DNA of 64,000 nt from a virus. Shown piece by piece: positions 20,832-41,304 of this stretch. The translations under genes and the position numbers were made by a program. The notes below the pieces were generated by a model. It saw only the letters and a program-made list of their open reading frames with translations. It was not told the DNA's origin and searched no databases. The stretch is taken from the IMG/VR virus record IMGVR_UViG_3300037391_000010, positions 91,418 through 155,417 of that record. One strand, 5' to 3'. Each line of letters starts with the position of its first letter. Positions within the stretch are counted from its first letter, which is position 1.

Positions 20832-21374
20832 ATGGCAGTCGCACCCTTCACCCGCATTGTAGTCGATAAGAAGGAGGAGGCGAAGTTCCGCCGCCGAGCC
20901 CTGAATCATTACCCACTGGAATACATGGAAGCCCTGTGGGGCAAAGTACGTGGTGATATCCTCTACATTCATGCCTTTGTGAAGGTCGATCATAAGCCCG
21001 GAAAACGCACCCTTCGGTACGAGGATTACGAGATTGACGAGCATGAAGAGGATGCAGCCGAAATCGGGCTGACCTACCTTGGCACCATCCACACTCACCC
21101 AAACGCCGAAGATGCTCAATTTAGCGAGGTTGACTGTGAACAATCGCAGGACTCTCAGGACGTAATGATGGGCATCTGTGCCATCCAAACTACCTATCTT
21201 GATGAGGAAACCAAGACTCAAAAGCCCCTGAACCGCAAGGTCGTCCGCGTCGAATACTGGCCGACCGTAACCCCACTCATCGCCATTCGTCGCGACACAC
21301 CACCCTCAAGGTCGGTCAAACGAGCCCTCAAAAGGGGCTATAAACTGGCGAAAAAGAAGAAGTCCCGTCGATAA
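20832..21374 (+). CDS. JAB/MPN+ metalloprotease
   Basis: N-terminal Glu (PLEYME) and 'LGTIHTHP...FSEVD' HxH...SxxD motif. Confidence 0.8.
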   Translation: MAVAPFTRIVVDKKEEAKFRRRALNHYPLEYMEALWGKVRGDILYIHAFVKVDHKPGKRTLRYEDYEIDEHEEDAAEIGLTYLGTIHTHPNAEDAQFSEVDCEQSQDSQDVMMGICAIQTTYLDEETKTQKPLNRKVVRVEYWPTVTPLIAIRRDTPPSRSVKRALKRGYKLAKKKKSRR

Positions 21375-21392: not shown

Positions 21393-24300
21393 ATGGGCGC
21401 TAGAATGAATCCATTGCTTCAAATGAAGACCGCCGCGTTCTCCTCGGTACGGGAAATCAATATCTCGGAAGATCAGGGCTCCGCAGAAGGGTACACAGCG
21501 GACACCAGTGCGGAACAACTCCAGAATTGGCTCGACCGCTTCGGCTACACGAACGAGGAATTCGTTGCCGACCTGCGGAAGAAATACGATAGCTTCGCCG
21601 TATTGAATAACATCAATGTGTACGAAGATTCCCGTGGCAAGGGCTACGGCGATTACCTGCTTCAGGAATTCCTGCGAGAAGCTGGGGATCATGGTGCGGG
21701 TATCTGCCTGCTGGTCGCCGACACTGCCGAGGAACAGGCCAAGGGTTTCAGCTTGGTGGAGTGGTACGAACGTAACGACTTCGAGCAGATTGCCTCGGTC
21801 TACGGCGGGGAACTGATGATATTGGGCATCATGAATCCGAAGATTGTGGCAAAGAAAGCAGCCGCCGACATCGGTCAGATGAAGAACATTGTTGCCGAGA
21901 TGATGAGCGTACTCACCGCTGGGCTACCACAGCCCGAAGTCAAGATCATAAACCAGACCAATAGAACGTTGGGGCAATGCCGTTGGCTTTGGGGCAAGAA
22001 AGCCGATCAGACTTGGGGCGATGACAATACCACGTTGGAAATTCAGAAGAAAGTTCTGGGGCACGAGGAGACCCTCCGTCGCGTCATCGCCCACGAACTG
22101 TGTCACCATGAAGTTGCTTTGCTCGTTGCTAAACCAAAGCTTCTGGAGATCGGCTACGAAACCTACAAACGGTATCAGAACATTTTCGGGCCTGATGGAC
22201 ACGGCAAGGAATGGAAGGAAGTCGCCAAGCGTTTCGATGCAAAATACGGTGCGGACTTTGTGACAGAGAAATCCGATAAGGACACCGTAGTGGACGAACA
22301 AGGCAAAGAAATCTTCATCCTGCTCAATAACTATGTCTACGGTCGGCACAAGCAGCGTTTGGGCTGGCAGTGGGCAGTGGGGCTTAGCCGTCAGGCTATG
22401 GCGTACCTCGATGGGATTGATTGGACTTCAGGCGAATTCAAACTGGTCAAGACGACTGATGCTGTATTCACCAAGGGGCGAGGCCGAATCAAGCAGTACA
22501 CAGGATGGAATTTGCCGCGCACCCCTGAACAGGAACAGAAGCTTCAAGACCTCTGGGCGAATGCTCCGATGGCGAAGTTCGGTGCCGACGAAGACAAGAC
22601 TGCCAAGTCAGGCCCGCACAAGAATGCGACATCCCAGATCAACCTGCCGCCCGAAGCCGCCGCTGGGATGATGGAAGCCGCGAAGCAAATTCCCGATGAG
22701 GAACTCGGCAAGGATGGTCGCGAGGATGACCCACACATCACAGTTAAGTACGGAGTAAAGCCCGATCCCGATTTGTTGAGTCAAGTTGTAGGTGAACAGC
22801 AACCATTTACGGTAACGCTGGGCAAGACGCACGTATTTTCCGTGAGCGAAAGTTCCGACGCTCAAGCTCCTATCGTGGTTCAATGCCATGCTCCCGAACT
22901 TGAGGCTCTCCACAACAAGGTCGCGGAAGCGATTGGCACTCGCAAGGATGATTTCCCCTACGTGCCACATGTAACTCTCGCTTATGTCAAGCCCGACGTT
23001 GCCGCCAAATATGAAGGAATGGACTGGGCTGAGGGCATCTCCTTCCAAGTAGACGCCATCACCCTGAGTACGAAGGGCGGCGGTCAGGTTCGAGTGCCAT
23101 TTGGCAAGCCTCGTAAGTCCGCATCCCACAAAACCCCACCGATGAGCGACACGCAGTACCAGAACCCTGAGATGGGTGAGGAGACGAACGCTTACGCAGA
23201 CATTCCAGAGCGTGTGAAGGGTGTCGAAGACCTGCCTTCGCTCGAATCGCTTTCGCCTGACCTATTCAAGACGGGAGCGGGCAGCGTTCACGATCTCGAT
23301 TTACAGGACGTGGTTGCTTGGGGCGGCAGCCTCAGTGAGGCACAGGGCGATTGGAACAAGATCAGGGCAGAGGCCGCTGAACGTGTGAAGGCTGAAGGCA
23401 AGGATTGGGAGAAAATGCCCGAGGCTGAACAGGAAGTGTGGCTCGACAAGATTGGCTGGGAGTGGCTCGGGGCGACATGGGAAGTCACCATGAACCGCCT
23501 CCAATCTCTGAAGTTCCCTCTCGTAGTCTACCGTGGGCTGGGCTCCGTCAGCCTCAAGGAGATCAACAAGGGGCAATACAAAGAGAAGGGCACGGGCATC
23601 TATTGGTCTTATGATGAGAACAACGCTTACGTGCATGAGGAACTCGCCGCTGGGCATTCGCACATCATAATGTTGCGAGGCGTCGTGAGTTCACCAAAGC
23701 AGATCGATTGGATTCGTACCGCTTATGTCAACCTCGTGGCATCGGATGAGAAGGAAATCAACATCTGGCCGGGTGAAGAGGTTCAGATCACGGGCTACAA
23801 GTACAAGGGTGAGAAGGCGTGGAAGAATCCACCGAAGAATCTCCGTCAAGTACGTGCCGCCGCCACGAACTTCAAGCCCATGCTGTTCGACAACTGGTGT
23901 GACGCGAACCCGATGTACCAGCCTGACGATTTCAACGAGGCCGAATACCGTTACGATGAGAATGTCGCCCACTTCAGCACTGTGGATTTCCCCATCACGA
24001 TCTACCGTGCGGTTCAAGTTGAGCAAGGCACGCAGCCGAACTTGGAGAAGGCTGGCATCTATTGGACGTGGGTTGAGAACAGTGCTGATGCGTACTTTGG
24101 TTCGGGGTCGATATGGGATCAAGGCGGGCCGCATCCGAAGAACCCTCAAACCTTAATTCTAAAAGCCAAGGTGTTGCGTTCGACCGATGTGGATTGGGAC
24201 GCGACTCTTCTCGCCAACATGCTCAACGAAGACGAGAACGAGATCACTGTTGAGGCAGGTGCCCAGCTTCAATTGATTGGTATCGATTACGGGCAAGGCT

Positions 24301-27300
24301 ATAAGAAGCCCGCTCAGAAAAGGGTCATGGCATACGGCGACGAATCCAAGAACCTGCCTTTACGTGGACAGAAAGGTGTGGGCGGACAGGACTTTCCTCT
24401 GATGTTCGACCCGCCGTTGTTCTCGGATGAGAAGGAAGCCGCAGGCAGACCGAAGTTCTACCACGGCACGGCAGCGGAGAACCTCGACGACATCCTAAAG
24501 AACGGGCTCAAAGCCAGCAAGGATATGAGCAGCAACGAGTGGGGTCGGTCTGTGTACCTCGCCTGCGATGCATACACGGCAAAGAACTACGAGGGGCATC
24601 AAGGCAAGGGTCGCGGCAACTGGGTCATATTGGAGATCGACGGCAATAAGCTCCATGAAGACCTGCTTCGTCCCGACGATTACGATTTCCGCGACATCTT
24701 CGAGAGCTTGCCCGAGGAAGAGAAGGCAAAATGCGAGGGCAACTGGGCGTGGTGCGATTGGCGAATAAGCCTTGAGCACAGTTGTCAAGTGGCGTACATG
24801 GGCGATGTCCCGCCTGACGCCATTAAGGTCGTTCCAACGCCGAAGTTCAGCGCAAAGATCAATCCCAAGTTAAAAGCATGGTTCAACGGTTCGAAGGTTG
24901 TGGACGACAAAGGACAGCCACGCATTGTGTACCACGGCAGCAAATCCACGTGGATCAGTTCCTTCGATCTGGGTATGGAAGGCACAGGCACGGCAGGCAG
25001 CACAAAGTGGGGCGGCATTTGGTTCACATCGAACCAAGGAAACGCCAGTTGGTTCGCCGATCCGCCCGAGGAAAAGGTTGAAGCACGCACTGATGACGTG
25101 ACGGTCTACGGTAATGACCCGTATTATGCCGCCATCACCGACATTAACGGCGAAGGCATTTTCGAAGTTGGCCCGCATCCTACAGAAGAGGAAGCGGAGC
25201 GAGACGGCATTGCACAGGCGAAAATGTACAACGAGCATCTGGGTGAGGACACCAACGTCCAAGCCGTCTACCTGAAGATCGTCAACCCGTATGTCACCGA
25301 TCAGATTCCGCGTGACAAGGAATTCAAAGCCGCTCGGGATGGCGGACACGACGGGATCATCGCCAAAGAGGTAACGGATGGTGTGGAGGTTAGCGATGTG
25401 TTTGTCGTGTTCAGTCCGAATCAGGTCAAGTCCGCTACCCGCAATGTCGGGAACTATGACCCGAACAACCAAAGCATTATAGCGGGTGGGTCAACCCAGT
25501 TGTTGCCCGACGAAGTGGAGCTAGTTGCAGACATCGCTCAAAGCGGCGGCGGGAAGGCATTCCCGAAGCTGGAGAAAGAGCCATTGTTCCCCGAGGATAA
25601 AGAGAAAACTGCCAGTGCCACACCAGAAATCAAGGAAGAAGCAAACAGTCTCCGATTAGAAGTTGGGGGGCAGAAGATTGGCTATATCGGTTATCGCGTG
25701 GATCAAGTCGGCAAGAAGAAGTTTGCCGAAATCTCCGGTCTCGAAGTGGACAAGGCATGGCGTAGACAGGGGTGGGGAACAAAGCTGTACGAAGCTCTTG
25801 CCGCAAAAGCGAAACGCGAAGGCATCTCGTTCCTGACCTCCAACCTCAGCGGTATGACCTCTTCTGACGCAGAGGGTGTGTGGTCTCACCTTATTGGTAA
25901 AGGGTACAACATTGAGGAGGTTGCATCCGAGGATTCGGAGACGGGCAAGCCGTATTTCAAGTGGAAAGTCGCCAAGCAGTACGGCCCCGTCTATCACGGC
26001 ACCTATCACGAATGGTCTGACAAAATCCAGAATGACAAATACAAGATCGGAAAGTTTTTCAGTTCAGACCCGCTTGTGGCACAGGCATACGGCAGCTTCG
26101 TGCATGAATGTTATCTGACGATGAACAAACCATTCATCGTGGACGCGAAGGGAGAAAGTTACTCCTCAATCCCCACGCCCGAAGCGTTGAAGCGTTGGGT
26201 TGCCTCTGGAATGGATACGGTCGATACTGACAACATTGCTGATTACGCCTCCAAACATGGGTACGATGGCGTCATCATTAAAAACGTTGTTGAGCTTCAC
26301 CACCAAGTCGAGGCGGACGACTACATCGTGTTTAAGCCCAATCAGATTAAGGTGAAGGGCGTCATTGAGCCTGAGATCAGTCCTTACACTGCCAACAAAT
26401 ACCATAAGCAAGAGTTGCAGCGTCGTTTTGAAAAGAAATACCCCCAGACGGCAAGCTCGCACACGGCGGCGGGACTCCCGTCATTCAATGCGTGGGTGAA
26501 GAAGAACGGCGGCATCGCCAAGATTCTCGACATGTACGACGTTGACACAGCGGAGACTTACGGTTCCGGGTTGGAAGAGCCCGAGAATCAAGCTGACGTT
26601 AAACGTTACGAGAAAGAACTACACAAGCGTGCCTTGGCGGACTTTCAAGAGCGATACGAGCATTTTATCGCGGAGTACCAAAGCTGGCAATTCCCGATGG
26701 ATGTGTTCCGTTGCATCTCTTTGCCAAAGCCTGACAGCAACGCAGGACAGCAGCACTTGTTCCCCGATACTCCGCAGGCACAGTTCCAGCAAGGATTGCA
26801 GGCGATAAAGTACAACGGCGTCGGCATCTTCTGGTCGTGGGATGAAAACTCCGCAGAATGCCATTGGGGTTCTGGCGGGCCGAACGTGACGCTGCACGGC
26901 ATAATCAACAAAGACAACGTTGATTGGGAAGGCACGCTTTACGCCAACATGTTTCCCGCATTGGGCGACGACGAAAAAGAAGTCCGTCTGATAGAGGGTA
27001 CACAATTTGAGCTTGAGGGAATCCAATACGACGAGAAGTCGGGATGGTCGCAGCCCCCAGTGAAGACGGTTACGGCAGCGAAGGCCAAGAAGCGTGTGTT
27101 CTACCATGCGACGAGTGCCGCGAACATCAATGGCATTGCACAGCACGGGTTGAAGCCTTCGGAGAAGACGAACTGGGGTGGTATGCTGGGAGATAGCTCC
27201 CTTGGCAAGACGTTTTTTGCAAAAACACCCGCCTCGGCGATGTACTACGCCATGATTATCTTCCGCGACAAGCTGGAGGATAACGGTCAAGCACATGTCC

Positions 27301-30300
27301 CGATCTGCCTTCGTGTGACCATACCTGAGAAGGTTCAGTTGGACACGGAGCGGGCCCAGAATGTGCAGAGGGGAGTCCATTTACCAGAAAGTGAAGCCTA
27401 TGCTCCCGATGAGGAATCGTGGGTCACGGAGGGGATTCCGCCTGCGAACATTCAGATGTTCTGGCAGGGTAAGTGGCAGCCAGTCAAATCGGGCGATTGG
27501 GATTCCATGTTCTATTATGAAGAGGGAGAGGGCGTTGGGTACGTGGACTGGGAAGGCTCCCCCGTTGGAGATTCCGTTCCTGAAGCTATGGCTGACGTTG
27601 AGAGCTTCACGATGCCGAAGAAAGCAGGCGTGATGGGTCAGGTATACCTCCTGCACTTCGATATCGATCCGAAGGAAGAGATTCCTAGCACCCGCGAGGA
27701 CGCTAAGAAGCCGTTCCACGCTCGTCACTATATGGGCTGGGCCGAGAACGCACAGGAGCGCATCGACCAGCACTACAAGGCAACCTCAGGCGTCAAGCTG
27801 ATCGAAGCCATCCATGCCAAGGGTATTTCGTTCACCGTCGCCCGAATTTGGGATAACGTGGATCGGGACTTTGAGCGTAGGATGAAGAATCAGGGCGGAT
27901 TGAACCGTCACTGTCCTATTTGCAAGAAGCTGGGGCTCATCCCCGCGTCTCGCTATCGCGGCAAGGCATTGGAGAAGCAAGTGGCACCAGCAACACCTGA
28001 AGCAGGGCTAGATTTCGTGGAGATAGAGAAGAAGGCCGCAGCGGGTGATCTCGCCAATCTGCGGAACTACCTCACTCTGAGCCGCCGCGAGATGGGCGAG
28101 GAGTTAGCTCGGAATTTCAGCAGCTATTGGTCAGAGTTCGTAGAGAATGAGCATCCCGAGCTTGCCAATCTTATCGACGAAGATGGCTACACTGACAATT
28201 TTGACACTGTTCCCGAGGATGTATTGAGCGACTTCCTCGACCAGTACGGCAGTCGGGCACTACAGGATGACCCCGCTATGGCTCCCACGTTCCTGACTGT
28301 GGACTATCGTCGCGATGTCAAGAACGCTTGGCTCGTGCATTTCACCGACTTCCCCGATGAGATTGCCAAGAGTGGTTTCAAGTACGGCATGGATCGGGTG
28401 GAAACGCTCGCTCTAACGACCTACTTCAAGGAGGACGCGAAGAAGTTCGGTGGGTATAACTTTGCCCTCGACGCCCATCACCGCAACCTTGAATCTCTCG
28501 GGAGCAACTACGGCAAGCATTGCGTTCTGTTCCAAGCGAACGGTATTGAGACGTGGCATACAGGCGATGACTTTGAACAGATCATTTTCTGGGGTAAGGA
28601 CGCGAGGAACATCATTCCGATCTACGACAGCGGCGGGTATGGTACGTGGTCAGTCGGTGAGGACAAAGACGGTAACCCGCTGTTTGAGAGTGAAGACCTG
28701 TCGCAGGTTGTGGAGTGGGCAATTACGAACTCCGCGAAGTTGTTACCCAAAGCCAAGAAGCCGAAAGCTCAGCGTGCAGTCGCCAGTGAGATGACAACGT
28801 TATACCACCGTACTCGCCCGGGCCGTGAGGGACAGATTGACACGCAAGGATTGAGCCATATCGAAGGCGGCGGTGAACTTTGGTTTACTGATGATCCGTC
28901 TGCTTATTATGGGGACTCGCCAAACGCAATGTATAGCGTTGAGGTTCCTAAAGAAGAAGCCGAGGCCGCACACGTGGGTGGACACGATTACCGTTTCATG
29001 GGCCGTTCATTCGCCCCCGAACAAATCAAGAAGGTCGGTGCGGAGCCATGGGAAATGCGACAAGATGAATACGCGGGTCGCTGGAACGAGCAAGAGACAG
29101 AGGAGCAGAGCGGTGTGCGTCACCAGAAGAACCAAGATTGGGAACAGAATTCCCTAGCCGCCCTGTCGCTCGGTAAGATCACACCAGAACAGGCGAAGGA
29201 ACGCGGTGTGTACGAAGCGAAATCATTCATACCCCTGCCTCAGACCCCGTTGTATCACGTCACAACCGCCAAGAGTCAAGTCGAAGCGAATGGTCTCAAG
29301 ACTCGTCGTGAACTCGGTCAAAATTACGGCAAGGGGTTGGGCGGCGGCACCAGCATGAGCATCAGCTTCACTGATGATATGAGCATCGCACAGGGCATTT
29401 ACGATAACCTGCTGATCGCTCGTAAGGTTGCCGCAGGCGAGATGACCTTGGACGATCTGATTAGCACTGCCACTAAGGGCATGGGTGCGAACCGTCCGTG
29501 GATCGACGACATTCTCAAGTCGCTGGGCGGCTCCAACCCGAAGGACAAGATCAACGTGGAACTGGATGCCATACAACGTGGTGTGGCGTTCGAACACGGG
29601 CTGGGTCGTCCACCCGATGACGAAGCGATTCTGCCGCAGTACCGCAAGCCCGGGCCGTGGCGTCCTACTCCTTGGAGCCAACATTGGAAGGGCGGCGATG
29701 GAGAAGAGAAGTACACGTACTGGGAACGCGACCTCACTCCTGAGGAAAAGCAGGAACGTGTGTTTGAGTTCTTCAAGAAGTGGAGCTTCTGGCGTGAGCA
29801 AGCGGGCGGGGGACTTGATCCGCTGTACTTCATGAGTGATCCAAAAGCTTTGGGTCAGACACCCGAGAGTGAGATCACCATCCTGACATTCAAGGCTGTG
29901 CCCGGAGCAATGGGCACTCGTGAATCGGCATTGGGTGAATGGCGTGTGTACACGGGTGCGGCTGTGCAGCTTACGGGTAACGCGGCGGCGGCAAAGATGG
30001 GGATGTTTAATCCCAACCGAGCTAACGTTCAGTACAATTCCGAGAAGGGTACAGGCGAGTGGGAAGGCTGGAACATCGATTTCAGCGCCGATCCAGTCAA
30101 GGAGCACATGCTGCCCGCATCGTTCGTTCGGAAGCTGAAAGGAATTGAGCAGAAGTTCATCAACGTCGCCGATGTAGTGGAGACACAGAGCGAGCACTGG
30201 ACAAAATCCGAACGTGTGGATGAGATTCACACACAGATGGAAACCGAGAAATGGTTCGAAGCCATTCTCGTAGACGAGTACGAAGATCAGCAAGGGAAAT

Positions 30301-33300
30301 ATTACTTGGAAGAGGGGCATCACCGCACCCGTGTAGCAAAGAAGATGGGCAAAACGACTATTCCAGCCGTGATTATGAAGCTGGAACCTCGTAAACCTCA
30401 CTGGTCGTTATCGTCAGGTATCGTCAGAAAATCGTCAGATATCGCCAAGTTTGCGTTCCTCATCGAAGTTCCGAAGGAGTCACGCGGCCATTTCTGGGAT
30501 GAGCCGCCCGCCCACAATCTGGAGTTCTGGGCCTTCCGAAGCCGTCCTCCTGTCCTGATGAACGAGAAGGTCTACTTCACGTTCGACAAGATGCCCGTGG
30601 CGGAAACTACCTGCCTGAAGATTGAGAAACCCGGCGAGTCGCTGTGTGAACTGAGCGGCAAGTACGAGGATCACTGGAAGCTCTACTGGGAACCGAAGCA
30701 GTTCGTCAAATACGCTGGAGCCACAGTTACGTTGTACCATGGCACTTGCCCTGAAAATGCAACCGCACTCGTTGAAAAGGGATGGCAGCCGAATCAAGTG
30801 AGCAGTGGGGCGAATCGTGGTCAGTCGAAGTATTTGTACCTGACAAATATGACGGACAACGCTCGCTGGTTTGCTCAAGAACATGGGTGCGACACGCTAA
30901 TCGAAGTTCGCAATATCCCTCTGAGCTACATCGCACTCGACCCTGAGGACGCTACTCAGGACACGGTGGAGGCTGAGCTTGACTATAACGGCACGGGATT
31001 GCCCGGCACGGTTGTCCTCACACAGCCGTTGGGGGCGGAACATTTCCACGTGCTCCATGGTAAAGTCGGTAGCTTGAATGAGAAACGAAATGAAAAGTGG
31101 ATTTACCACCCCGATTACGGTGCGTTCTCACAGAAGGGAAGCATAGGTCCTCATGCGACGTTGATAGCGAGAACCATGGGTGAGGGCATGGCCTCTGGGT
31201 GGAAGTACACTGAGGTACTACGAGGCTACGCAGTAATTGACGTGGATCAAAAAACCGTAACCTTGGCGACTCCCACGAAAGAGTTCATACCGAACGACGT
31301 AGTGGATTTGTTCAAGAAGAAATACCCCCAGTACGACCTATCGATTCCTGCGGAATCGAAAGCGGTTGGTGTGACCGCCGCCATGCCGAAGAAGTGGTAT
31401 CACGGCACGTCCCTGAAGAACGCTGAGAAAATCCTGAAGGACGGCTACCTCCAGCCAGATCAAGAGACGACCTACGACATTGACATCCCGCGTGACGGGG
31501 CGGTATACATCGCCGACTTCGATATTGCGGAGCAGTACGCTATCGAACGCAGCGGTGTGGTGTTGGAAGTTGCCGCCCCGGATATCAGCAAGCTCCTGCC
31601 CGATGAAGATGATGTTTACGAACTGCTCAACGACCGTGGTGGTGAACTAAACGCCAAGGGTTCTGCCCAAGCCAAGCGTGTGAAAGCTCTGTGGCTCAAG
31701 CAATGGAATGATGAGAACGCTTCCTACAATGAGCCCGAGAAGTTCCCGATCTATAAGAACTTCGAGGAAGCATGGAAGGCATGGGGCGAAATCGAGTTCG
31801 AGGGCTCAGCCGAACTTGCCGAGCAGATGAAGTATTTGACCGACTACATTGTCAAGAATGATCCCAAGCTCGCTCGTGCGATCATCGAACTGGCGGGTAA
31901 GGCTGCTCACATAGGGCCGCTCAAGGTTGTCCGTCAGGTCAAGACGGGTGCTCCGAAGTCCATCTGGTATCACGGCTCCAGCCTGAAGAACCTGCAAAGC
32001 ATCATGAGTCAGGGATTGGTTCCCGAAGGTAAGGAAAAGGTCTGGGGGGACGATCCTGACGCTGGGCTATCTGCACCGAGTCGTCAATCTTACGGCGGAA
32101 TCTACGTCACACAGAACCTCATGACGGCGACGGGAGCCCCCAATACCGAGGACAAGAAGGCTCGTGGCGGCGTACTGATTGTCGCCATGGAGCTTCAGCC
32201 GAACACGATGTACCTCGACGAGGACAACGTTACGGGAGTCTTAGGCGCTCCAATCAAGCACCTGAGTGACAACACCTTCCACGTTCTCTGTTATTATTTG
32301 GCGGCTACACAAGAAGGCGCTGCTGAGACTTGGCAACAAGAGATAGAAGGAATGCGTGCTGACTATATTCGCAAGTGCCTTACGCAATGGGAGAGCAAAT
32401 TTGCGGAGCGTAAGATACCGTTCCACCCCGAACTGAAAAAGGAACTTGAGAAGATTCTACCCAGTGTGTGGCTCGCGGGCGTAACACGAGCGGCAGGCCA
32501 TGTCAAGGACAACTACTCCTACATTCGGGCTTGGGATCAGGTCTTCTACGGCACTCCGAAGGAGAAGCAGCGTCCCGACGCGAACACCGTGCTGCCCGAC
32601 GCATCTGAGGGAGAGGCGGCGTTCCGCGAAGCGGCAGAGAAGGTCACCCGCACGCTGCGGCTCCTCGCTCGTCCCGCTGAAGAGTCTTCGAAGAATCAGA
32701 TTTACAACATGAACACCTCTCGCGTCAACGAGCCGATTGGTTTCAGCGGGTCGAATCACATCCTCGCCCTCATAGAAGTTCGAGATCGCCAGCAGCCTGC
32801 TCAGATGATCCTGCACTGGGGCACCATTCCGCCAGACTTCTTCACCCAGTGGAACATAAAGTTTGGCAGCAAGTACGAAGTGGTGGACGCCCGCAAGGGT
32901 CAGCCCAAGGCTAGGGGTGTGGCAGCCTCAGCTAAAACCGCCGATGATTACGCCGCCGATTACGATCAGGAAGTCTTCTACCACGCGACCACGTGGAAGA
33001 TCGCTGACTTGATCGACAAAGAAGGATTGAAGTCAAGCGACAATCAACTGACTCAGGGTAAGAAGTACATCTGGTGCTCTATCGATATGGCTGCGGCGAA
33101 AACTTACGGTCGGTACTTTAGCCAAGACGAGGATAACGAACAGTTTGCTGTGGTGGAATTCATCTGGAATTACGATAAGAGCGAGCCTGACCCGGAGCAC
33201 TTTGAAGAGGGCGACACGTACCGCCGCATCGAGTCCGACATTCCTCGGTCGGCAATCACCAAAATTTACTATTTCGCACACGATCAGGTTGTCAAGACGG

Positions 33301-36300
33301 CTGCGGTAGAGGATAAAATCAAGGTAACCACGGCTCCAGACGGACGAATTACGGCCAAACACGTCGATGGAAGTGCTTCAGGCACCGTGGAAGACCGTGA
33401 AGGACTGGCTAAGTGGTTTGATTGGAACACTTTACCACGTGGCGGGGCTGGAATTTACGACAAAGCCTTCGTTTTGGGCACTGTAACGGTCAAAGTCTCG
33501 TGCCGCCGTACAGGGCTCGGCAGGGCGCTTATAGGGGCTGTGCTCGACGCAGCGAAGGCTCAGGGTGCCCAAGTGTGCTTCCTGCTCGCCCATTCGCTCA
33601 CAGGGCTCTCCGCGAAGGAATTGAGTGCTTTCTACAGCAGCCTTGGGTTCCAACCATACGTCATCGACCCGCCGCCGCGATGGTTCGATTCCTCGACCGC
33701 TGGCATTTTCATGAAGAAGCTGGCAGGCGTGGCAAAGCTCGCCGCCATGAACCGCATCAGCCAGCAGGACGCCGTGGATCGCAAGATGTTCGGCCCTGTC
33801 TACCATGGCACCACCGAGGAGAAACAGGAGAACATCGGGAACGAGGGCTTCAAGGTCTACATCGGTGACGCGGGATCGGGCGACGTTGCTCACGGTTACG
33901 AAGGTAACCAACCCTATCATGACGGCATCCCTGCCCCCGTTCACCATCTGGGGTACGGCGTGTACTTCACGACCGCCAAGGCTATCGCCAAGCAGTTCGC
34001 GGGCGGCACCACGCGAGGTATGAAGACTTACTACCTCGACGTGCCACGGCTGGAGACCATCAACTTCGGAGTACCGAAGACCATGATGAAGTGGTGGGTG
34101 AGTCAGGGCTACGACGGGGCGCTCGCAAAGAAAGATCGCGTGGCAGCGACCAAGCAGATGACCGAGCACCTGAAGGCTCAGTTTGATGCCGTGTGGTTCA
34201 AGGGCAAGGGCATGTACAAGTTGCTCGATGGCGATCAGATTTGTGTGTTCGATTCGAGTCGCATCTATGAAGTCGATGCAGCTATGTCGAAGCCGGGTGA
34301 CATCGGCTCCAAGGTCATTCGTAAGGCCGATGGGATGAAGGGCGTCATCAAGAACATCCGTCCGATCCCGCCTGAAGTGGCACAGCAGTATCACGGTGGG
34401 GCGGACAAGTTCTACGAGATCAAGTGGACGAAGGGCGGCACCGACCACAACGTCTACGCCCGCGATATCGATTTCGTTGGGGCGAAGGCTCAGGGCGCTA
34501 CGGCGTCAATGAAGACCGCCGAAGGATTCAACGATGAGGGTTTCTGGGCAGGCGAAGGCAATGCCGCGTCTGGCGTTCTGCCAATCTGCACCACCACGGG
34601 CCGCATCTGTCTCGCATGGCGATCACCCGATGTCCATATCGGCAATTGCTGGGGCACCATCGGTGGGGCGGTCAAGCCGGAGATGAGCTTGTCAGAAAGT
34701 GCCAAGGCGGAACTGAAAGAAGAGACGGGGTTCGGCGGCGGTGTTACCATGATCCCCGCTTACGTGTTCAGCAGCGGGAGTTTCTCTTACCACAACTTCC
34801 TCGGAACCGTGGGCACGGAGTTCCGCTTCGCTCCGCAGAGCGAACATCACTGGGAGACCACTGGGCTCGAATGGTTCACATGGGATGAGATTCAGCAGAT
34901 GGTAAAGGAAAACTCCAGCGATTTCCACCCGGGCCTCATCAGCTTGTTCAAGAGCGACGGCAAGAAGATCGAACAGCTTCTCGGCAAGCCAAAGACAGCA
35001 GCGGGCGACGATGGGGATATGCCGAACATGCTTCAAGTCTTCCCCGAACGTCCCGATGTGATGGAGACTTTCCGCCACATGCGCCCATTCGAACGGGATC
35101 GATTGATCGAGGAAGCTCAAATCGAAGAGATACATCCCGCCGATCTGAAGACAAATCAGGCGACTCTTTCACGGAAAGACCTCCAGTATTTCTTGGACAA
35201 CCCCGAGGAGATCACCAAGCCGCACAGCAACGTCGGACTGAGCGACACGGAGCAGTTGTACCCGCTCGTGTGCCGCACCAGTGAAGGCGATTGGCTGTAC
35301 GATGGTAATCATCGTGCGAATGCCGCCATGAAGCTCGGCATCATGCTCAAGTGCAAGGTTGTAGACCTACGGGATTACGAGGAGCCACAAGGAAAGGTTT
35401 CCAGAAAGCTCGCCGCACGAGGCGAGGTTGGCCCTGTCTATCACGGCACCGACAAGAAGTTCGACAAGTTCGAGCAGAAACCCGGCACCCGATACATTCT
35501 CTTCTCCGAGATTAAGGTACAGGCTGGTGGGTTCTTCTTCACCGATGACCCTGAGGAGGCGAAGGAGTTCGGCTCGAACGTCATGACCTGCTACTTGAAG
35601 ATGAAGAAGCCACTGATTCGGCAAGAAGACCAGTATAACTTGAGCAAAAAGCAAATCGCCGACCTGACTTACATCTGCGAGCCATGCATGAGTGACGGCT
35701 ATTCCGACTTGCAAGGCAATTCCGTCAAGACGATTGAACTTGGAGCCTTTGCCATCGATGTAGACCCAGAAGGCAACTGGCTCAACGAGATTGTGAAGCA
35801 GAACGGGCTCGATTGGAACATCTTGGATAATCAAGAAGCCGTTAATCGCATGAAAGAGCGCGGCTACGACAGCACCATGGTGGATGAGTACAACGGCAAG
35901 TATAGCTATTGCGTGTTCTCGACCGACCAGATCAGGGTCAGTGGCGGCAAGACAGCCTCGGGTTGGAAGGACGAAGGCTTGCTCAACGAAAGCGACATGA
36001 AGAAGTGGAAACAATACTGGGACGGTCAGGGGCACAGTATCCAAGTTGACAAAGCCCACGGCGGGCTGTATCACTGCTGGATCAAGTTCGCAGCCGCCCC
36101 AGCCCGAGCATTGAAGCTCTACCATGTCACGACGGTGCCTATCGCCGAGGACATCAAGGCTCACGGCTTCAAGCCGGTCGATCAGGGTGTGTGGAAGAAC
36201 TATTACGCCCCGCAGGGACGCGACGGCATCTACTTTTACGACGATCTGAAATACTCCGAGGCTTACGCCGCCTACACCGAGGGTCAACTTTACACGCGCA

Positions 36301-37847
36301 ACATTCAGCCCGATAGACCTTGGAGTGAAAATAAGAAACACCTACCTCAGATGGCGATTATCGAAGTGCAGGTGCCCGAGGGTGTCGCGATTACCACCGA
36401 CCAGAAAGAGGATGGGTTCTTTGTACCCACCGCTGATCTGGACAAGGTTAAGATCGTCAGCATGAACAAGTACGACTACGTTCCAGCCAACGGTAGAAAG
36501 CCGGGTGAGAAGTTCGGGGCAGCCTTCCCAACCTTCGAGCAGGTCATGGATGAATCTACCTTAAGCATGACTAATGAGTTCATGTTCGGCCCAGATGAGG
36601 AATGCAAAAGATGGTACGACCAAGCGTTGGCGTTCTGGAAATCCCAAAAATTCCCATTGACGATCTATCGTGGCATGGCGGTATTTGAGAAAAGCCACGA
36701 GATCGACTACAACACGTTTGGTTGGTCGTGGTCTTTGGATAAGAAGTTCGCCCAGAATTTCGCCGAGGACAAGTACATCGACTATCCTGATGAACATCAC
36801 ATTGAAGTCTTCGAGGGCAAGGTCACCGCGTTTGCTGTGGACTGGCTCAACACCTTTAGGGCATGGGTCACTATTCCCGAAGAGAAAGAAGTCCGCCTTA
36901 AACCCAAAGCCAAGGTACAGATACCTAGCCTGAAGCGCACGGTGACGGCAGCCGACAAACCTCGCAGCAAGTATGACAAGGTTTGCTACGCTATCGCCAC
37001 GGACGACCAGTTGTGGGGATACTTCGCCGAGTATGTGCAGTGCTCCGACGCTTTTGAGAACCATCCCGAAGCCTCAGGCAGAGTGGTCGATCTGGTCAAA
37101 TCTATCCCGCCATTCGTACCGCCGACAACACGGAAGTGCCTTTATCGCGGGGAAGAAATTCGCATGGGGGATGATCGCCTACCCGCGAAGTGGGAGCCGC
37201 ATCTTCGGGACCTGCTGTCTTGGTCGGCAGCTTACGACACCGCCAAAGGGTTCTCTGGCGGACATCGAGGTATCGTGTGGCAGACCGTGGGCAAAATTCA
37301 GGGGATAGCCCTTGAGGATATCGTTCTCTGGCGCAATCGGACGCATCCAGATGAAAGCAACTATTCGGGTATGCAGTCCGAATGGTTTGTGATGAACACC
37401 TGCAACGCCAAGGAAGCAACCCCACCCAGCGCACAGCCAGCCCGAAGCTATGTGACCGCTGCGGCTGATGGGTTCCTTTACCACGGCATGAGCATGACGG
37501 ATTACAACCGAGCCATGAACGCTGACGGTATTCTACCTGAGCCTAGCTGGTGGGGCACCGCTGAGATTGCCGAGTATTACGCTGAGACCGCTGCCGAAGA
37601 GATTGGACCTGAGGAAGAATACAAAATCATCAAGCTGCCGCTCAGTGCGTTCAATCCATCGCTGTTGGAGGCAGATCAGAACTCGGTTGCCGAGCCTCTG
37701 ACCTATACACTTGGTCGCAGTGAGGATGAGTTGTACGAAGAATGGCAGAACTGCAAGGGCACGTGGGAAGATAGCCTGAGAATTTATGGGAGCGTTGTTT
37801 ACAACGCCCCCATCGAAGTTACCGCACAAACCGTCCCTTCTTCTTAG
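21393..37847 (+). CDS. 5484-aa polyvalent protein: ~20 ART-fold modules, 3 GNAT, SprT zincin, 2H phosphoesterase, GIY-YIG, NUDIX, 2 ParB/Srx and unknown modules
   Basis: Uninterrupted 16.4-kb ORF. Motifs read directly: HELCH; HITV/HVTL; repeated (V/F/L/W)YH(G/A/V)T...GL; FPxxxYR...W(S/T)...EKE; RxxGxG; G-x5-E-x7-ELKEETG; DGNHR/EGHHR. Confidence 0.92.
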   Translation: MGARMNPLLQMKTAAFSSVREINISEDQGSAEGYTADTSAEQLQNWLDRFGYTNEEFVADLRKKYDSFAVLNNINVYEDSRGKGYGDYLLQEFLREAGDHGAGICLLVADTAEEQAKGFSLVEWYERNDFEQIASVYGGELMILGIMNPKIVAKKAAADIGQMKNIVAEMMSVLTAGLPQPEVKIINQTNRTLGQCRWLWGKKADQTWGDDNTTLEIQKKVLGHEETLRRVIAHELCHHEVALLVAKPKLLEIGYETYKRYQNIFGPDGHGKEWKEVAKRFDAKYGADFVTEKSDKDTVVDEQGKEIFILLNNYVYGRHKQRLGWQWAVGLSRQAMAYLDGIDWTSGEFKLVKTTDAVFTKGRGRIKQYTGWNLPRTPEQEQKLQDLWANAPMAKFGADEDKTAKSGPHKNATSQINLPPEAAAGMMEAAKQIPDEELGKDGREDDPHITVKYGVKPDPDLLSQVVGEQQPFTVTLGKTHVFSVSESSDAQAPIVVQCHAPELEALHNKVAEAIGTRKDDFPYVPHVTLAYVKPDVAAKYEGMDWAEGISFQVDAITLSTKGGGQVRVPFGKPRKSASHKTPPMSDTQYQNPEMGEETNAYADIPERVKGVEDLPSLESLSPDLFKTGAGSVHDLDLQDVVAWGGSLSEAQGDWNKIRAEAAERVKAEGKDWEKMPEAEQEVWLDKIGWEWLGATWEVTMNRLQSLKFPLVVYRGLGSVSLKEINKGQYKEKGTGIYWSYDENNAYVHEELAAGHSHIIMLRGVVSSPKQIDWIRTAYVNLVASDEKEINIWPGEEVQITGYKYKGEKAWKNPPKNLRQVRAAATNFKPMLFDNWCDANPMYQPDDFNEAEYRYDENVAHFSTVDFPITIYRAVQVEQGTQPNLEKAGIYWTWVENSADAYFGSGSIWDQGGPHPKNPQTLILKAKVLRSTDVDWDATLLANMLNEDENEITVEAGAQLQLIGIDYGQGYKKPAQKRVMAYGDESKNLPLRGQKGVGGQDFPLMFDPPLFSDEKEAAGRPKFYHGTAAENLDDILKNGLKASKDMSSNEWGRSVYLACDAYTAKNYEGHQGKGRGNWVILEIDGNKLHEDLLRPDDYDFRDIFESLPEEEKAKCEGNWAWCDWRISLEHSCQVAYMGDVPPDAIKVVPTPKFSAKINPKLKAWFNGSKVVDDKGQPRIVYHGSKSTWISSFDLGMEGTGTAGSTKWGGIWFTSNQGNASWFADPPEEKVEARTDDVTVYGNDPYYAAITDINGEGIFEVGPHPTEEEAERDGIAQAKMYNEHLGEDTNVQAVYLKIVNPYVTDQIPRDKEFKAARDGGHDGIIAKEVTDGVEVSDVFVVFSPNQVKSATRNVGNYDPNNQSIIAGGSTQLLPDEVELVADIAQSGGGKAFPKLEKEPLFPEDKEKTASATPEIKEEANSLRLEVGGQKIGYIGYRVDQVGKKKFAEISGLEVDKAWRRQGWGTKLYEALAAKAKREGISFLTSNLSGMTSSDAEGVWSHLIGKGYNIEEVASEDSETGKPYFKWKVAKQYGPVYHGTYHEWSDKIQNDKYKIGKFFSSDPLVAQAYGSFVHECYLTMNKPFIVDAKGESYSSIPTPEALKRWVASGMDTVDTDNIADYASKHGYDGVIIKNVVELHHQVEADDYIVFKPNQIKVKGVIEPEISPYTANKYHKQELQRRFEKKYPQTASSHTAAGLPSFNAWVKKNGGIAKILDMYDVDTAETYGSGLEEPENQADVKRYEKELHKRALADFQERYEHFIAEYQSWQFPMDVFRCISLPKPDSNAGQQHLFPDTPQAQFQQGLQAIKYNGVGIFWSWDENSAECHWGSGGPNVTLHGIINKDNVDWEGTLYANMFPALGDDEKEVRLIEGTQFELEGIQYDEKSGWSQPPVKTVTAAKAKKRVFYHATSAANINGIAQHGLKPSEKTNWGGMLGDSSLGKTFFAKTPASAMYYAMIIFRDKLEDNGQAHVPICLRVTIPEKVQLDTERAQNVQRGVHLPESEAYAPDEESWVTEGIPPANIQMFWQGKWQPVKSGDWDSMFYYEEGEGVGYVDWEGSPVGDSVPEAMADVESFTMPKKAGVMGQVYLLHFDIDPKEEIPSTREDAKKPFHARHYMGWAENAQERIDQHYKATSGVKLIEAIHAKGISFTVARIWDNVDRDFERRMKNQGGLNRHCPICKKLGLIPASRYRGKALEKQVAPATPEAGLDFVEIEKKAAAGDLANLRNYLTLSRREMGEELARNFSSYWSEFVENEHPELANLIDEDGYTDNFDTVPEDVLSDFLDQYGSRALQDDPAMAPTFLTVDYRRDVKNAWLVHFTDFPDEIAKSGFKYGMDRVETLALTTYFKEDAKKFGGYNFALDAHHRNLESLGSNYGKHCVLFQANGIETWHTGDDFEQIIFWGKDARNIIPIYDSGGYGTWSVGEDKDGNPLFESEDLSQVVEWAITNSAKLLPKAKKPKAQRAVASEMTTLYHRTRPGREGQIDTQGLSHIEGGGELWFTDDPSAYYGDSPNAMYSVEVPKEEAEAAHVGGHDYRFMGRSFAPEQIKKVGAEPWEMRQDEYAGRWNEQETEEQSGVRHQKNQDWEQNSLAALSLGKITPEQAKERGVYEAKSFIPLPQTPLYHVTTAKSQVEANGLKTRRELGQNYGKGLGGGTSMSISFTDDMSIAQGIYDNLLIARKVAAGEMTLDDLISTATKGMGANRPWIDDILKSLGGSNPKDKINVELDAIQRGVAFEHGLGRPPDDEAILPQYRKPGPWRPTPWSQHWKGGDGEEKYTYWERDLTPEEKQERVFEFFKKWSFWREQAGGGLDPLYFMSDPKALGQTPESEITILTFKAVPGAMGTRESALGEWRVYTGAAVQLTGNAAAAKMGMFNPNRANVQYNSEKGTGEWEGWNIDFSADPVKEHMLPASFVRKLKGIEQKFINVADVVETQSEHWTKSERVDEIHTQMETEKWFEAILVDEYEDQQGKYYLEEGHHRTRVAKKMGKTTIPAVIMKLEPRKPHWSLSSGIVRKSSDIAKFAFLIEVPKESRGHFWDEPPAHNLEFWAFRSRPPVLMNEKVYFTFDKMPVAETTCLKIEKPGESLCELSGKYEDHWKLYWEPKQFVKYAGATVTLYHGTCPENATALVEKGWQPNQVSSGANRGQSKYLYLTNMTDNARWFAQEHGCDTLIEVRNIPLSYIALDPEDATQDTVEAELDYNGTGLPGTVVLTQPLGAEHFHVLHGKVGSLNEKRNEKWIYHPDYGAFSQKGSIGPHATLIARTMGEGMASGWKYTEVLRGYAVIDVDQKTVTLATPTKEFIPNDVVDLFKKKYPQYDLSIPAESKAVGVTAAMPKKWYHGTSLKNAEKILKDGYLQPDQETTYDIDIPRDGAVYIADFDIAEQYAIERSGVVLEVAAPDISKLLPDEDDVYELLNDRGGELNAKGSAQAKRVKALWLKQWNDENASYNEPEKFPIYKNFEEAWKAWGEIEFEGSAELAEQMKYLTDYIVKNDPKLARAIIELAGKAAHIGPLKVVRQVKTGAPKSIWYHGSSLKNLQSIMSQGLVPEGKEKVWGDDPDAGLSAPSRQSYGGIYVTQNLMTATGAPNTEDKKARGGVLIVAMELQPNTMYLDEDNVTGVLGAPIKHLSDNTFHVLCYYLAATQEGAAETWQQEIEGMRADYIRKCLTQWESKFAERKIPFHPELKKELEKILPSVWLAGVTRAAGHVKDNYSYIRAWDQVFYGTPKEKQRPDANTVLPDASEGEAAFREAAEKVTRTLRLLARPAEESSKNQIYNMNTSRVNEPIGFSGSNHILALIEVRDRQQPAQMILHWGTIPPDFFTQWNIKFGSKYEVVDARKGQPKARGVAASAKTADDYAADYDQEVFYHATTWKIADLIDKEGLKSSDNQLTQGKKYIWCSIDMAAAKTYGRYFSQDEDNEQFAVVEFIWNYDKSEPDPEHFEEGDTYRRIESDIPRSAITKIYYFAHDQVVKTAAVEDKIKVTTAPDGRITAKHVDGSASGTVEDREGLAKWFDWNTLPRGGAGIYDKAFVLGTVTVKVSCRRTGLGRALIGAVLDAAKAQGAQVCFLLAHSLTGLSAKELSAFYSSLGFQPYVIDPPPRWFDSSTAGIFMKKLAGVAKLAAMNRISQQDAVDRKMFGPVYHGTTEEKQENIGNEGFKVYIGDAGSGDVAHGYEGNQPYHDGIPAPVHHLGYGVYFTTAKAIAKQFAGGTTRGMKTYYLDVPRLETINFGVPKTMMKWWVSQGYDGALAKKDRVAATKQMTEHLKAQFDAVWFKGKGMYKLLDGDQICVFDSSRIYEVDAAMSKPGDIGSKVIRKADGMKGVIKNIRPIPPEVAQQYHGGADKFYEIKWTKGGTDHNVYARDIDFVGAKAQGATASMKTAEGFNDEGFWAGEGNAASGVLPICTTTGRICLAWRSPDVHIGNCWGTIGGAVKPEMSLSESAKAELKEETGFGGGVTMIPAYVFSSGSFSYHNFLGTVGTEFRFAPQSEHHWETTGLEWFTWDEIQQMVKENSSDFHPGLISLFKSDGKKIEQLLGKPKTAAGDDGDMPNMLQVFPERPDVMETFRHMRPFERDRLIEEAQIEEIHPADLKTNQATLSRKDLQYFLDNPEEITKPHSNVGLSDTEQLYPLVCRTSEGDWLYDGNHRANAAMKLGIMLKCKVVDLRDYEEPQGKVSRKLAARGEVGPVYHGTDKKFDKFEQKPGTRYILFSEIKVQAGGFFFTDDPEEAKEFGSNVMTCYLKMKKPLIRQEDQYNLSKKQIADLTYICEPCMSDGYSDLQGNSVKTIELGAFAIDVDPEGNWLNEIVKQNGLDWNILDNQEAVNRMKERGYDSTMVDEYNGKYSYCVFSTDQIRVSGGKTASGWKDEGLLNESDMKKWKQYWDGQGHSIQVDKAHGGLYHCWIKFAAAPARALKLYHVTTVPIAEDIKAHGFKPVDQGVWKNYYAPQGRDGIYFYDDLKYSEAYAAYTEGQLYTRNIQPDRPWSENKKHLPQMAIIEVQVPEGVAITTDQKEDGFFVPTADLDKVKIVSMNKYDYVPANGRKPGEKFGAAFPTFEQVMDESTLSMTNEFMFGPDEECKRWYDQALAFWKSQKFPLTIYRGMAVFEKSHEIDYNTFGWSWSLDKKFAQNFAEDKYIDYPDEHHIEVFEGKVTAFAVDWLNTFRAWVTIPEEKEVRLKPKAKVQIPSLKRTVTAADKPRSKYDKVCYAIATDDQLWGYFAEYVQCSDAFENHPEASGRVVDLVKSIPPFVPPTTRKCLYRGEEIRMGDDRLPAKWEPHLRDLLSWSAAYDTAKGFSGGHRGIVWQTVGKIQGIALEDIVLWRNRTHPDESNYSGMQSEWFVMNTCNAKEATPPSAQPARSYVTAAADGFLYHGMSMTDYNRAMNADGILPEPSWWGTAEIAEYYAETAAEEIGPEEEYKIIKLPLSAFNPSLLEADQNSVAEPLTYTLGRSEDELYEEWQNCKGTWEDSLRIYGSVVYNAPIEVTAQTVPSS

Positions 37848-38124
37848 CGTCACGCAGGCGCTTCTTTTCCGCACGCTCCTTCATGACCTTCTGCTCGACC
37901 GCCCACAGGAACAATCCCTCCCACGAGAAGTCGTAGGTCTGTCGCGTGCCCTTCAGTCGCACGGTGCCGTGCCAGCCGTTGTCCACATCCACAACGATGC
38001 TGCGAGATACGGGAACACGCCGCGTCTTCCTCTTCTCCTTGTCCACGGTGATGCTACCCCACCCCCGCATCTCGGCGTCCGTCTCGAAACTCAGCCGCGT
38101 CTTCCGTTCGCTAATCTTGGTCAT
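37819..38124 (-). CDS. Small basic hypothetical protein convergent with the giant ORF
   Basis: AAGGAGG RBS and TGGTATAAT promoter (-10 at 38148-38153). Confidence 0.75.
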   Translation of the reverse strand: MTKISERKTRLSFETDAEMRGWGSITVDKEKRKTRRVPVSRSIVVDVDNGWHGTVRLKGTRQTYDFSWEGLFLWAVEQKVMKERAEKKRLRDAKKKGRFVR

Positions 38125-41189: not shown

Positions 41190-41304
41190 GCCTACTCCTG
41201 TTCCGTATCCGAGTCCCACAAGTACCACCTTTCTAAGGTTTGAGAAGTGACTTTCCCCGTTCTGATAGGTGCCGACTCCCTTAAAATCTCACCAATACCG
41301 TGAA

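Follow-up and report, generated by a model that had tools for sequence, protein, structure and literature searches.

Many effectors carried in one chain and freed by cuts at short inter-domain sites are familiar from MARTX-type toxins and viral polyproteins, and herpesvirus assemblin cleaves at the consensus (V/L/I)-x-A↓S (↓, scissile bond). Among phages, the polyvalent proteins of Iyer et al. 2017 combine 2 to 15 domains, and zincin autoproteolysis is suggested for them (PMC5512222). Phage T4 brings cargo into its prohead with a capsid-targeting sequence, a short leader ending in a protease motif, and the proteases of T4, phiKZ and SPN3US cut after x-x-E, reading a three-residue P3-x-P1 motif and trimming their own tails (PMC5694885). 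The 250-kDa antirestriction polyvalent protein DarB of phage P1 is packaged by an N-terminal signal of which fewer than 30 residues suffice (PMC9024508). Here we describe a giant polyvalent protein encoded in the final 64 kb (positions 91,418 to 155,417; hereafter the window, 64,000 nucleotides (nt)) of the 155,417-bp IMG/VR viral contig IMGVR_UViG_3300037391_000010 (completeness estimate ~48%). A short motif marks the joints between its modules, recurs in head proteins and at the flanks of the head-maturation protease, and is probably the site at which the chain is cut into separate enzymes.

The giant protein shares with the proteins of Iyer et al. their vocabulary of ART-PolyVal, InPase, ParB, zincin, GNAT and NUDIX domains, its phage origin and a presumed co-delivery with DNA, but differs in having ~33 modules over 5,484 amino acids (aa) and a tag, common to head proteins, that points to the prohead protease; the word 'linker' is absent from the available part of that text (PMC5512222). 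As in the T4 internal proteins and the ADP-ribosyltransferase (ART) Alt, an N-terminal leader ending in a protease motif is predicted to serve prohead entry. The candidate protease appears to have the same fold as T4 gp21 and its phiKZ and SPN3US counterparts, which cut at (S/A/G)-x-E, and would likewise read three residues from P3 to P1. Whereas the cargo of these phages comes from separate genes with one or few sites and Glu at P1, dozens of cargo units here stand in one chain, with a predicted P1 of Ala or Gly and Lys at P3. Assemblin is matched in fold and in the predicted site, V/K-x-A↓A/S, with Ala at P1 and a small P1' residue, whereas the phage enzyme has a zinc-ribbon insert, the P3 residue is mostly Lys and the predicted substrates are effector modules beyond scaffold. 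DarB, too, is a giant multi-enzyme head cargo with an N-terminal signal, but it has few domains, and internal cutting is not described for it in the available part of the source (PMC9024508). MARTX toxins and viral polyproteins offer a functional analogy for which no homology is claimed, their cutters being an in-chain cysteine protease or viral 3C-like enzymes and their delivery route another. A limited literature search found no published description of a K-x-A cleavage motif or of a protease-jointed phage polyprotein, and no cleavage sites are given in the phage G multi-omics paper or the Tunturi paper.

A giant polyvalent protein and the motif at its joints

The giant open reading frame (ORF; P0001) spans window positions 21393–37847 (+) as a single unbroken frame of 5,484 aa, and its true start is probably M5 (nt 21405), since relatives begin MNPLL. 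Pfam matches comprise ART-PolyVal (5.4e-32 and 1.3e-15), PARP-like, three GNAT, SprT zincin, 2H and NUDIX domains, together with a weak ParB_N match (0.002, under the cut-off), the multi-domain make-up that defines polyvalent proteins (Iyer et al. 2017), and the contig also carries genes for a tail sheath, a head-maturation protease and a major capsid protein, which identifies the chain as phage-encoded. On these sequence matches the giant ORF is a polyvalent protein sensu Iyer et al. 2017, and an exceptionally large one. An initial annotation of the window, made from its letters, had proposed such a protein, and the Pfam matches agree with it, as do the InPase-RelA/SpoT and JAB genes upstream. 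By its capsid protein, the closest cultured relative of the phage is Tunturiibacter phage Tunturi_5, a 309-kb jumbo myophage (71% identity), with the uncultured 485-kb phage LR745208, Bacillus phage G and cluster-C mycobacteriophages more distant; judged from these matches, the source is an uncultured soil jumbo myophage akin to Tunturi_5.

The chain appears to hold about 33 autonomous modules, of which about 19 look ART-fold (14 H-type, with a YH[GAVR][TSM] start, and five R-type), and the remainder include three GNATs, an SprT zincin, a 2H phosphoesterase (LigT/Acb1-like), a NUDIX and ParB-like modules. A self-BLAST of the full protein returned the identity match only, and masked-window BLAST was used instead, by which the five R-type modules (the Y/F-R-G group) are mutually paralogous. 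Their ART label is based on this paralogy and a weak Atlas lead: the neighbours of one R-type module (module 7) are all ART families, at scores of 0.80–0.90, which serve as a lead only. Pfam scans on 20 single modules gave almost no matches, and only about half of the ~33 modules match Pfam; the ~30 enzyme modules initially proposed are therefore in part a prediction.

All 27 motif strings that the initial annotation had listed along the ORF were found at their nucleotide positions (27/27). K.[AG][AS] occurs 23 times in the giant protein against 9.8 ± 3.1 expected, 23 being the maximum over 2000 shuffles, and VTAA four times against 0.12; among its most over-represented short words the catalytic YHGT ranks first, with TAA, K.AA, VTAA and KTA among the top. 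The formula first given, K-x-(A/G)-(A/S) or VTAA, is thus enriched but fails to cover seven of its 27 examples, and the motif is better described as K (less often V, R or H)-x-(A/G), followed mostly by A, S or G and sometimes by D, E, K or F. Motif codons vary synonymously from site to site, so selection acts at the level of the peptide. The same codon variation led to rejection of a repeat or recombination site in the DNA itself.

The modules are listed below with window coordinates, the final residues of each and the predicted cut (↓). Breakpoints, given in aa of the giant protein, are BLAST alignment ends against rearranged relatives, collapsed to 29 clusters in giant protein coordinates; G001, G003, G004 and G005 are related complete genomes found via the capsid protein.

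21405–21434 (+): N-terminal leader MNPLLQMKTA, with the first K-x-A site at its end; a candidate capsid-targeting peptide
21435–21863 (+): module 2, GNAT, end KAA↓AD; Pfam match; elsewhere in G004 (aligned aa 12–143)
21864–22604 (+): module 3, SprT-like zincin, end KTA↓KS; Pfam 6.6e-7; breakpoints aa 148, 399
22605–23123 (+): module 4, 2H phosphoesterase (LigT/Acb1-like), end KSA↓SH; Pfam 7.2e-15; the G003 ORF begins exactly here
23124–23276 (+): module 5, small, no family, end KTG↓AG; breakpoints aa 573–576, 623–642; stop of G004 ORF1
23277–23861 (+): module 6, R-type ART-like paralogue (VVYRGL), end RAA↓AT; internal paralogy, no Pfam match
23862–24440 (+): module 7, R-type ART-like paralogue (TIYRAV), end KEA↓AG; paralogy, Atlas ART neighbours as a lead only
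24441–24851 (+): module 8, PARP-like ART (FYHGT), end KFS↓AK; Pfam PARP 5.2e-6
24852–25613 (+): module 9, ART-PolyVal, end KTA↓SA; Pfam 5.4e-32
25614–25973 (+): module 10, GNAT, end KVA↓KQ; Pfam 8.5e-11; breakpoints aa 1525–1530
25974–26468 (+): module 11, ART-PolyVal (VYHGT), end HTA↓AG; second stretch of the Pfam match; breakpoints aa 1679–1700
26469–27077 (+): module 12, R-type ART-like paralogue (DVFRCI), end VTA↓AK; paralogy with modules 6 and 7
27078–27626 (+): module 13, PARP-like ART (FYHAT), end KKA↓GV; Pfam PARP 1.4e-5
27627–28040 (+): module 14, no family, end KAA↓AG; coincides with the G004 ORF2/ORF3 boundary
28041–29039 (+): module 15, probably two units (breakpoint aa 2473, before LYHRT), end KVG↓AE
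29040–29987 (+): module 16, no family (LYHVT at aa 2620), end NAA↓AA; internal strict site KVAA at aa 2678
29988–30455 (+): module 17, ParB_N-like, end KFA↓FL; Pfam 0.002, under the cut-off; the G005 1,733-aa ORF begins at this joint
30456–30716 (+): module 18, small, end KYA↓GA; breakpoints aa 3013–3018, 3106–3119
30717–31070 (+): module 19, H-type ART-like (LYHGT), end KVG↓SL; breakpoints aa 3221–3223; Arr-ms 0.1
31071–31379 (+): module 20, no family, end VTA↓AM
31380–31949 (+): module 21, H-type ART-like (WYHGT), end KTG↓AP
31950–32942 (+): module 22, PARP/Tpt1-like (WYHGS), end KTA↓DD; Pfam 5e-5 and 1.5e-4, under the cut-off
32943–33302 (+): module 23, H-type ART-like (FYHAT), end KTA↓AV; joint in a low-confidence segment of the model (below)
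33303–33743 (+): module 24, GNAT, end KLA↓AM; Pfam 4.6e-6; joint in a low-confidence segment
33744–34520 (+): module 25, ART-PolyVal-like, end KTA↓EG; stand-alone orthologues (below); model confidence >90
34521–35000 (+): module 26, NUDIX, end KTA↓AG; Pfam 4.5e-8; breakpoints aa 4372–4382, 4530–4537
35001–35414 (+): module 27, ParB-like (DGNHR), end KLA↓AR
35415–35957 (+): module 28, ART-PolyVal, end KTA↓SG; Pfam 1.3e-15
35958–36092 (+): module 29, small, end KFA↓AA; G004 ORF2 begins at the LYHVT after this joint
36093–36518 (+): module 30, ART-PolyVal-like (LYHVT), end KFG↓AA; Pfam 0.039; breakpoints aa 4907, 5042
36519–36950 (+): module 31, R-type ART-like paralogue (TIYRGM), end VTA↓AD; paralogy
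36951–37460 (+): module 32, R-type ART-like (CLYRGE), end VTA↓AA
37461–37844 (+): module 33, H-type ART-like (LYHGM), C-terminal; breakpoint aa 5356; its homologue is the first module of the G001 protein

Module boundaries were defined in four ways independent of the motif, by ART starts, rearrangement breakpoints, AlphaFold linkers and the ends of stand-alone orthologues. A strict motif lies ≤30 aa upstream, usually 8–11, of eight of the 14 ART starts of the form [FVLWIY]YH[GAVR][TSM] (random 1.9, p ~1e-4), in keeping with the earlier remark that a YHGT-type strand soon follows the motif. Fourteen of the 29 breakpoints are ≤12 aa from a strict motif (random 3.35, maximum 11 in 20,000 trials), and most of the others fall on looser K-x-A-x strings (KTAK, KTAE, KTAD, KYAG, KFAF and KVAK). 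In an AlphaFold model of aa 3830–4560 (48 sequences; mean predicted local distance difference test (pLDDT) 75), the GNAT, ART and NUDIX domains are well folded, and the four joints KTAA 3968, KLAA 4115, KTAE 4374 and KTAA 4534 are the four short segments with pLDDT <50 in its well-modelled part (model residues 136–141, 283–288, 536–547 and 705 onward); a single-sequence locus search with the same residues returned close relatives only. Module 25 (aa 4118–4376) has >80 stand-alone orthologues of 245–300 aa on other huge-phage contigs, which start ~3 aa past KLAA and end 12 aa short of KTAE.

Module interiors are depleted of the strict motif (3 vs 8.5 expected, P = 0.03) and of K.A (18 vs 31.2 expected, P = 0.007), the pattern that selection against internal cutting would give. 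With joints enriched by all four definitions and interiors depleted, the motif marks the module joints, which confirms and strengthens the observation made in the initial annotation.

The head-maturation protease, head proteins and related phages

Beyond the giant protein, the motif is concentrated in particular proteins of the contig, as counts of K.A[AS] illustrate:

Giant ORF: 15 observed, 5.0 expected
Four head-module proteins: 13 observed, 5.5 expected
Four other large mosaic proteins: 25 observed, 7.9 expected
All remaining ORFs (35,220 aa): 19 observed, 20.5 expected

With the giant protein left out, the top patterns in the head and mosaic proteins are K.AD and K.AA (low-complexity and zinc-ribbon patterns set aside), and no similar pattern enrichment was found in the other ORFs of the contig. 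The major capsid protein carries KTAG and KLAA at residues 19–29, with KSAA and KLAA in its Tunturi_5 counterpart and KTAA and KLAA in that of LR745208. In Tunturi_5 the motif is frequent in the 'ejection protein' gp328 (12 vs 2.4 expected) and the scaffold-like gp332 (6 vs 1.9), and in phage G it occurs in the portal N-terminus (AKQAAS) and the protease (VKTAAK).

The prohead protease gene (genome 27942–28898) lies outside the window, 83 kb upstream of the giant gene, in a head module with scaffold-like and capsid genes, and its product matches the PHROG 'head maturation protease' (2e-14). Across 46 homologues (61–87% identity to the first aligned sequence), KTAS and K-x-A-A precede the core and K-x-A-S follows it, conserved inside tails that otherwise vary in sequence and length; in the protease model these motif-bearing tails are disordered and the core is confident. 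As read from the alignment, this bracketing of the core is the pattern of a self-processing prohead protease. By VIA-align the model aligns with T4 gp21 (5jbl) at a moderate Z of 8.0 (root-mean-square deviation 3.3, 128 aa aligned) and with herpesvirus proteases at Z 5.4–7.3, which together with gp21 occupy the top 14 rows, with unrelated folds at ≤4.7; the modelled protease thus has a gp21/assemblin-like fold. Invariant His and Ser residues in the alignment, among which a His-Ser-His catalytic triad may lie, include H57, H111, H121, H153 and S169. The link to prohead proteolysis drawn in the initial annotation gains from these results, in that a protease is located on the contig and the motif lies at its core flanks as well as in head proteins and the capsid N-terminus.

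Some further features of these proteins were observed. The longest protease ORF begins 18 codons upstream of the start shared by its homologues (MPFTK...), and the core holds an insert, a Cys/His zinc-ribbon-like element (C179, C182, C193 and H195 invariant) not noted for T4 gp21. In Mycobacterium phage Alice, which like phage G has a distant member of the protease clade, a homologous protease domain forms the first 204 aa of gp90 (1,511 aa), directly followed by KTAG and then by RTAA twice; this protease-headed polyprotein belongs to a cultivable, well-studied phage group and could serve as a model. The four mosaic proteins (genome 46638–52646, 74174–76105, 76657–82572 and 82547–85717; 2,002, 643, 1,971 and 1,056 aa) are jointly about threefold enriched in K.A[AS], the 2,002-aa and 643-aa proteins being individually enriched in the strict motif, and Pfam scans of all four gave no informative family matches. 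Part of the 2,002-aa protein resembles gp328 of Tunturi_5.

Homologous polyvalent genes in the related genomes have their modules in other orders and numbers, encoding 3,883 aa in G001, 3,341 aa in G003, three consecutive ORFs in G004 (1,518, 1,262 and 3,659 aa) and two ORFs in G005 (2,982 and 1,733 aa). The motif is about twofold enriched in most of these ORFs, and 21 further long metagenomic homologues contain 155 motifs against 75 expected (p = 4e-16). Joints in the relatives keep the motif despite different neighbour modules (ASKTAAELAPPLYHGT, GKTASH, SPKLAAEED, TVTAAMNRIS and AKFAAMNTIS). In Tunturi_5, the 1,362-aa homologue gp321 shares the SprT, 2H and ART-PolyVal modules and contains six motifs (2.65 expected), its gene being situated in the virion gene cluster, between head-tail connector and tail genes.

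The ends of the relatives' ORFs coincide with joints of the giant protein. G004 ORF1 stops at the position of KTGA 626, ORF2 starts at the LYHVT following KFAA 4898 and ends at KKAAA 2213, and ORF3 begins MEKQA at this same KKAAA joint (aa 2213–2214); the G003 ORF starts with the 2H module, behind KTAK 402, and the two G005 ORFs begin at joints 3106 and 3019. The modules flanking these joints therefore work as separate polypeptides in other phages. As the comparison of relatives indicates, each module bears its own tag, so that a module can be gained, dropped, moved or made a gene of its own without loss of function, and the cassette-like addition of modules first suggested extends to their exchange and fission at the motif.

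In G001, two extra modules stand between the conserved leader and the GNAT, and a deletion has joined a 35-residue stub of the PARP-like module 8 to the linker that follows. Among the metagenomic homologues of module 25, three distant polyvalent proteins from AT-rich sequence (P0178, P0186 and P0196) have joints without K-x-A, with stretches such as INEE and VREE instead. These resemble T4-type (I/V)-x-E sites, and it is a speculative possibility that the joint tag may co-vary with protease specificity.

The N-terminus of the giant chain reads MGARMNPLLQMKTAA. The G001 protein begins MNPLLRKIAK, followed by a different module, and G004 ORF1 contains MNPLLQKITAA. MKPSNPLLQKQAL heads a 554-aa head-module protein that is unrelated to these, its gene immediately preceding that of the protease (genome 26305–27969), and likewise heads its homologues in relatives. 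By analogy, the ten-residue leader ending in the motif has the same form as the capsid-targeting sequence of T4, a suggestive likeness.

Predicted processing in the capsid and its alternatives

Because one tag is common to the joints, the protease flanks and the head proteins, the chain is probably cut into separate enzymes inside the capsid. The reading we favour, and hold to be probable on these sequence patterns, is of a capsid-loaded polyvalent protein that the assemblin-fold prohead protease would cut at (K/V)-x-A↓(A/S) into ~33 enzymes. The chain would be made from a three-gene operon together with the InPase-RelA/SpoT protein and the JAB peptidase, the gene order being observed, and the MNPLLQ leader would bring it into the prohead, much as the capsid-targeting sequence does in T4 and the N-terminal signal does for DarB of P1. 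Going by the distribution of the motif, the gp21/assemblin-fold protease would then cut the joints at (K>V,R)-x-(A/G)↓(A/S/G...), with the scissile bond most likely after Ala by analogy with the assemblin (V/L/I)-x-A↓S and T4/phiKZ x-x-E↓ sites. As the family and domain content suggest, the ~33 small enzymes would be injected along with the DNA to take over the host and counter its defences.

Several observations weigh against this reading. The motif is weakly defined, since the position behind Ala varies widely (A, S, G, D, E, K or F), and three strict sites fall within modules. Conservation of the motif in the capsid protein is uninformative because its N-terminal 47 residues are almost invariant in 79 close relatives, and the phage G capsid protein is without it. 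Foldseek alone gave a weak result for the protease (top match 5jbl, E 0.015). G001 lacks aa ~1046–2865 of the giant protein, a deletion that begins inside module 8 and not at a joint. The giant gene sits among non-structural genes, ~78 kb away from that of the capsid protein, and the leader is absent from the G003 ORF, G004 ORFs 2 and 3 and the G005 ORFs, so that its role as a packaging signal is suggestive only.

A chain that stays whole is in our view unlikely; here K-x-A-A would be just a preferred flexible linker, or a junction that tolerates recombination, and the 620-kDa protein would act, and perhaps be packaged, uncut. Large polyvalent proteins need not be cut, given that the N4 virion RNA polymerase is packaged unprocessed (Iyer et al., PMC5512222), and the motif lies in disordered linkers, as any linker would. 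A passive linker, however, leaves unexplained why the motif is depleted inside modules, why it brackets the protease core in 46 homologues, why scaffold-like head proteins are rich in it when other multidomain ORFs are not, and why joints become gene ends in relatives.

Cutting by a different protease, whether ahead of packaging or once the chain has been injected, strikes us as quite improbable; the candidates are a host enzyme and the two agents named in the initial annotation, the internal SprT zincin and the JAB peptidase next door, both of them possible but less likely than the prohead protease. An SprT module (Pfam 6.6e-7) does lie within the chain and the JAB gene directly upstream, and zincin-mediated release of polyvalent domains has been proposed by Iyer et al. 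(PMC5512222). Yet G004 ORFs 2 and 3, the G003 ORF and both G005 ORFs bear the motif with no match to the SprT module (aa 158–404) when compared with the giant chain, and the motif also stands at the prohead protease flanks and in scaffold-like proteins and the capsid protein, all unrelated to SprT or JAB. In addition, JAB peptidases normally cut after Gly-Gly, which counts against JAB as the cutter.

Chance, composition or common descent, with the motif as an inherited N-terminal extension of duplicated ART domains, is very improbable. In its favour, ART paralogues are numerous among the modules, duplication has copied two-module units linker and all, and no single short word stays significant once 8,000 tripeptides are corrected for. 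But the motif also precedes GNAT, SprT, 2H, NUDIX and ParB modules and not ART modules alone, head proteins of other descent and the relatives have it too, its codons are not conserved, and the positional tests (p ≤1e-4), the breakpoints, the head-protein enrichment and the 21 further homologues disfavour chance.

Neighbouring genes and significance

Three features directly flank the giant gene:

19329–20825 (+): InPase, RelA/SpoT and C-terminal domain protein, 498 aa (Pfam InPase 2.4e-31, RelA_SpoT 2.8e-11)
20832–21374 (+): JAB-type metallopeptidase, 180 aa, directly 5' of the giant ORF (Pfam Prok-JAB 6.9e-8)
37846–37862 (+): terminator-like hairpin and T-run, right behind the stop codon (consensus match only)

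The 498-aa InPase-RelA/SpoT protein has KEAA (aa 138) and KTAS (aa 388) at its two domain joints, and both motif positions are kept in its G003, G004 and G005 homologues; it resembles a three-module member of the same tag system. A sigma-70 promoter scan gave fewer matches than shuffled sequence and is therefore uninformative. On the opposite strand, 2 kb downstream of the giant gene, lies the gene of a 400-aa AAA+ ATPase (window 40026–41228, −; AAA_2 1e-36, ClpB_D2-small 2e-15; PHROG 'ATP-dependent protease'), which also adjoins the polyvalent genes in G001 and G004 and is possibly an unfoldase associated with this large cargo. Nearby, a 170-aa protein (window 41670–42182, −) matches the RNA polymerase alpha C-terminal domain (2.7e-5), which is noteworthy beside ~19 ART modules because T4 ARTs modify the RNA polymerase alpha subunit; it could act as a decoy or replacement. 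Further genes encode an RNA ligase with an HNH-like N-terminal segment (window 45029–46057, −; PHROG 3e-110) and, outside the window (genome 8092–10438), a nicotinamide phosphoribosyltransferase (PHROG 1e-140) adjoining a 313-aa ORF; salvage of nicotinamide adenine dinucleotide (NAD) by this transferase could supply the many NAD-using ARTs or counter NAD-depleting defences.

If the chain is cut as predicted, this would explain how a 620-kDa payload of 33 enzymes passes capsid and tail, as small pieces, and how the arsenal evolves fast, through swapping of tagged cassettes. The predicted specificity, Lys/Val-x-Ala↓Ala/Ser, would be new for this clade of soil jumbo phages, a large one on which little work has been done, would connect the protease codes of phages and herpesviruses, and would give a rule for reading mature protein ends in genomes of the clade. 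The leader and tag together suggest a portable system for loading foreign proteins into capsids, and the cultured relative Tunturi_5 offers a direct test. More tentatively, as a possibility to which we give slightly less than even weight, the MNPLLQ-type leader and herpesvirus-like (K/V)-x-A↓(A/S) tag may form a general, evolvable cargo code among jumbo phages related to Tunturi_5 and phage G. Under such a code, any module placed between tags would be loaded into the capsid, cut free and injected, and one transcript of the 5,484-aa gene would encode a whole arsenal, ~33 enzymes that act separately, ~19 of them NAD-using ARTs.

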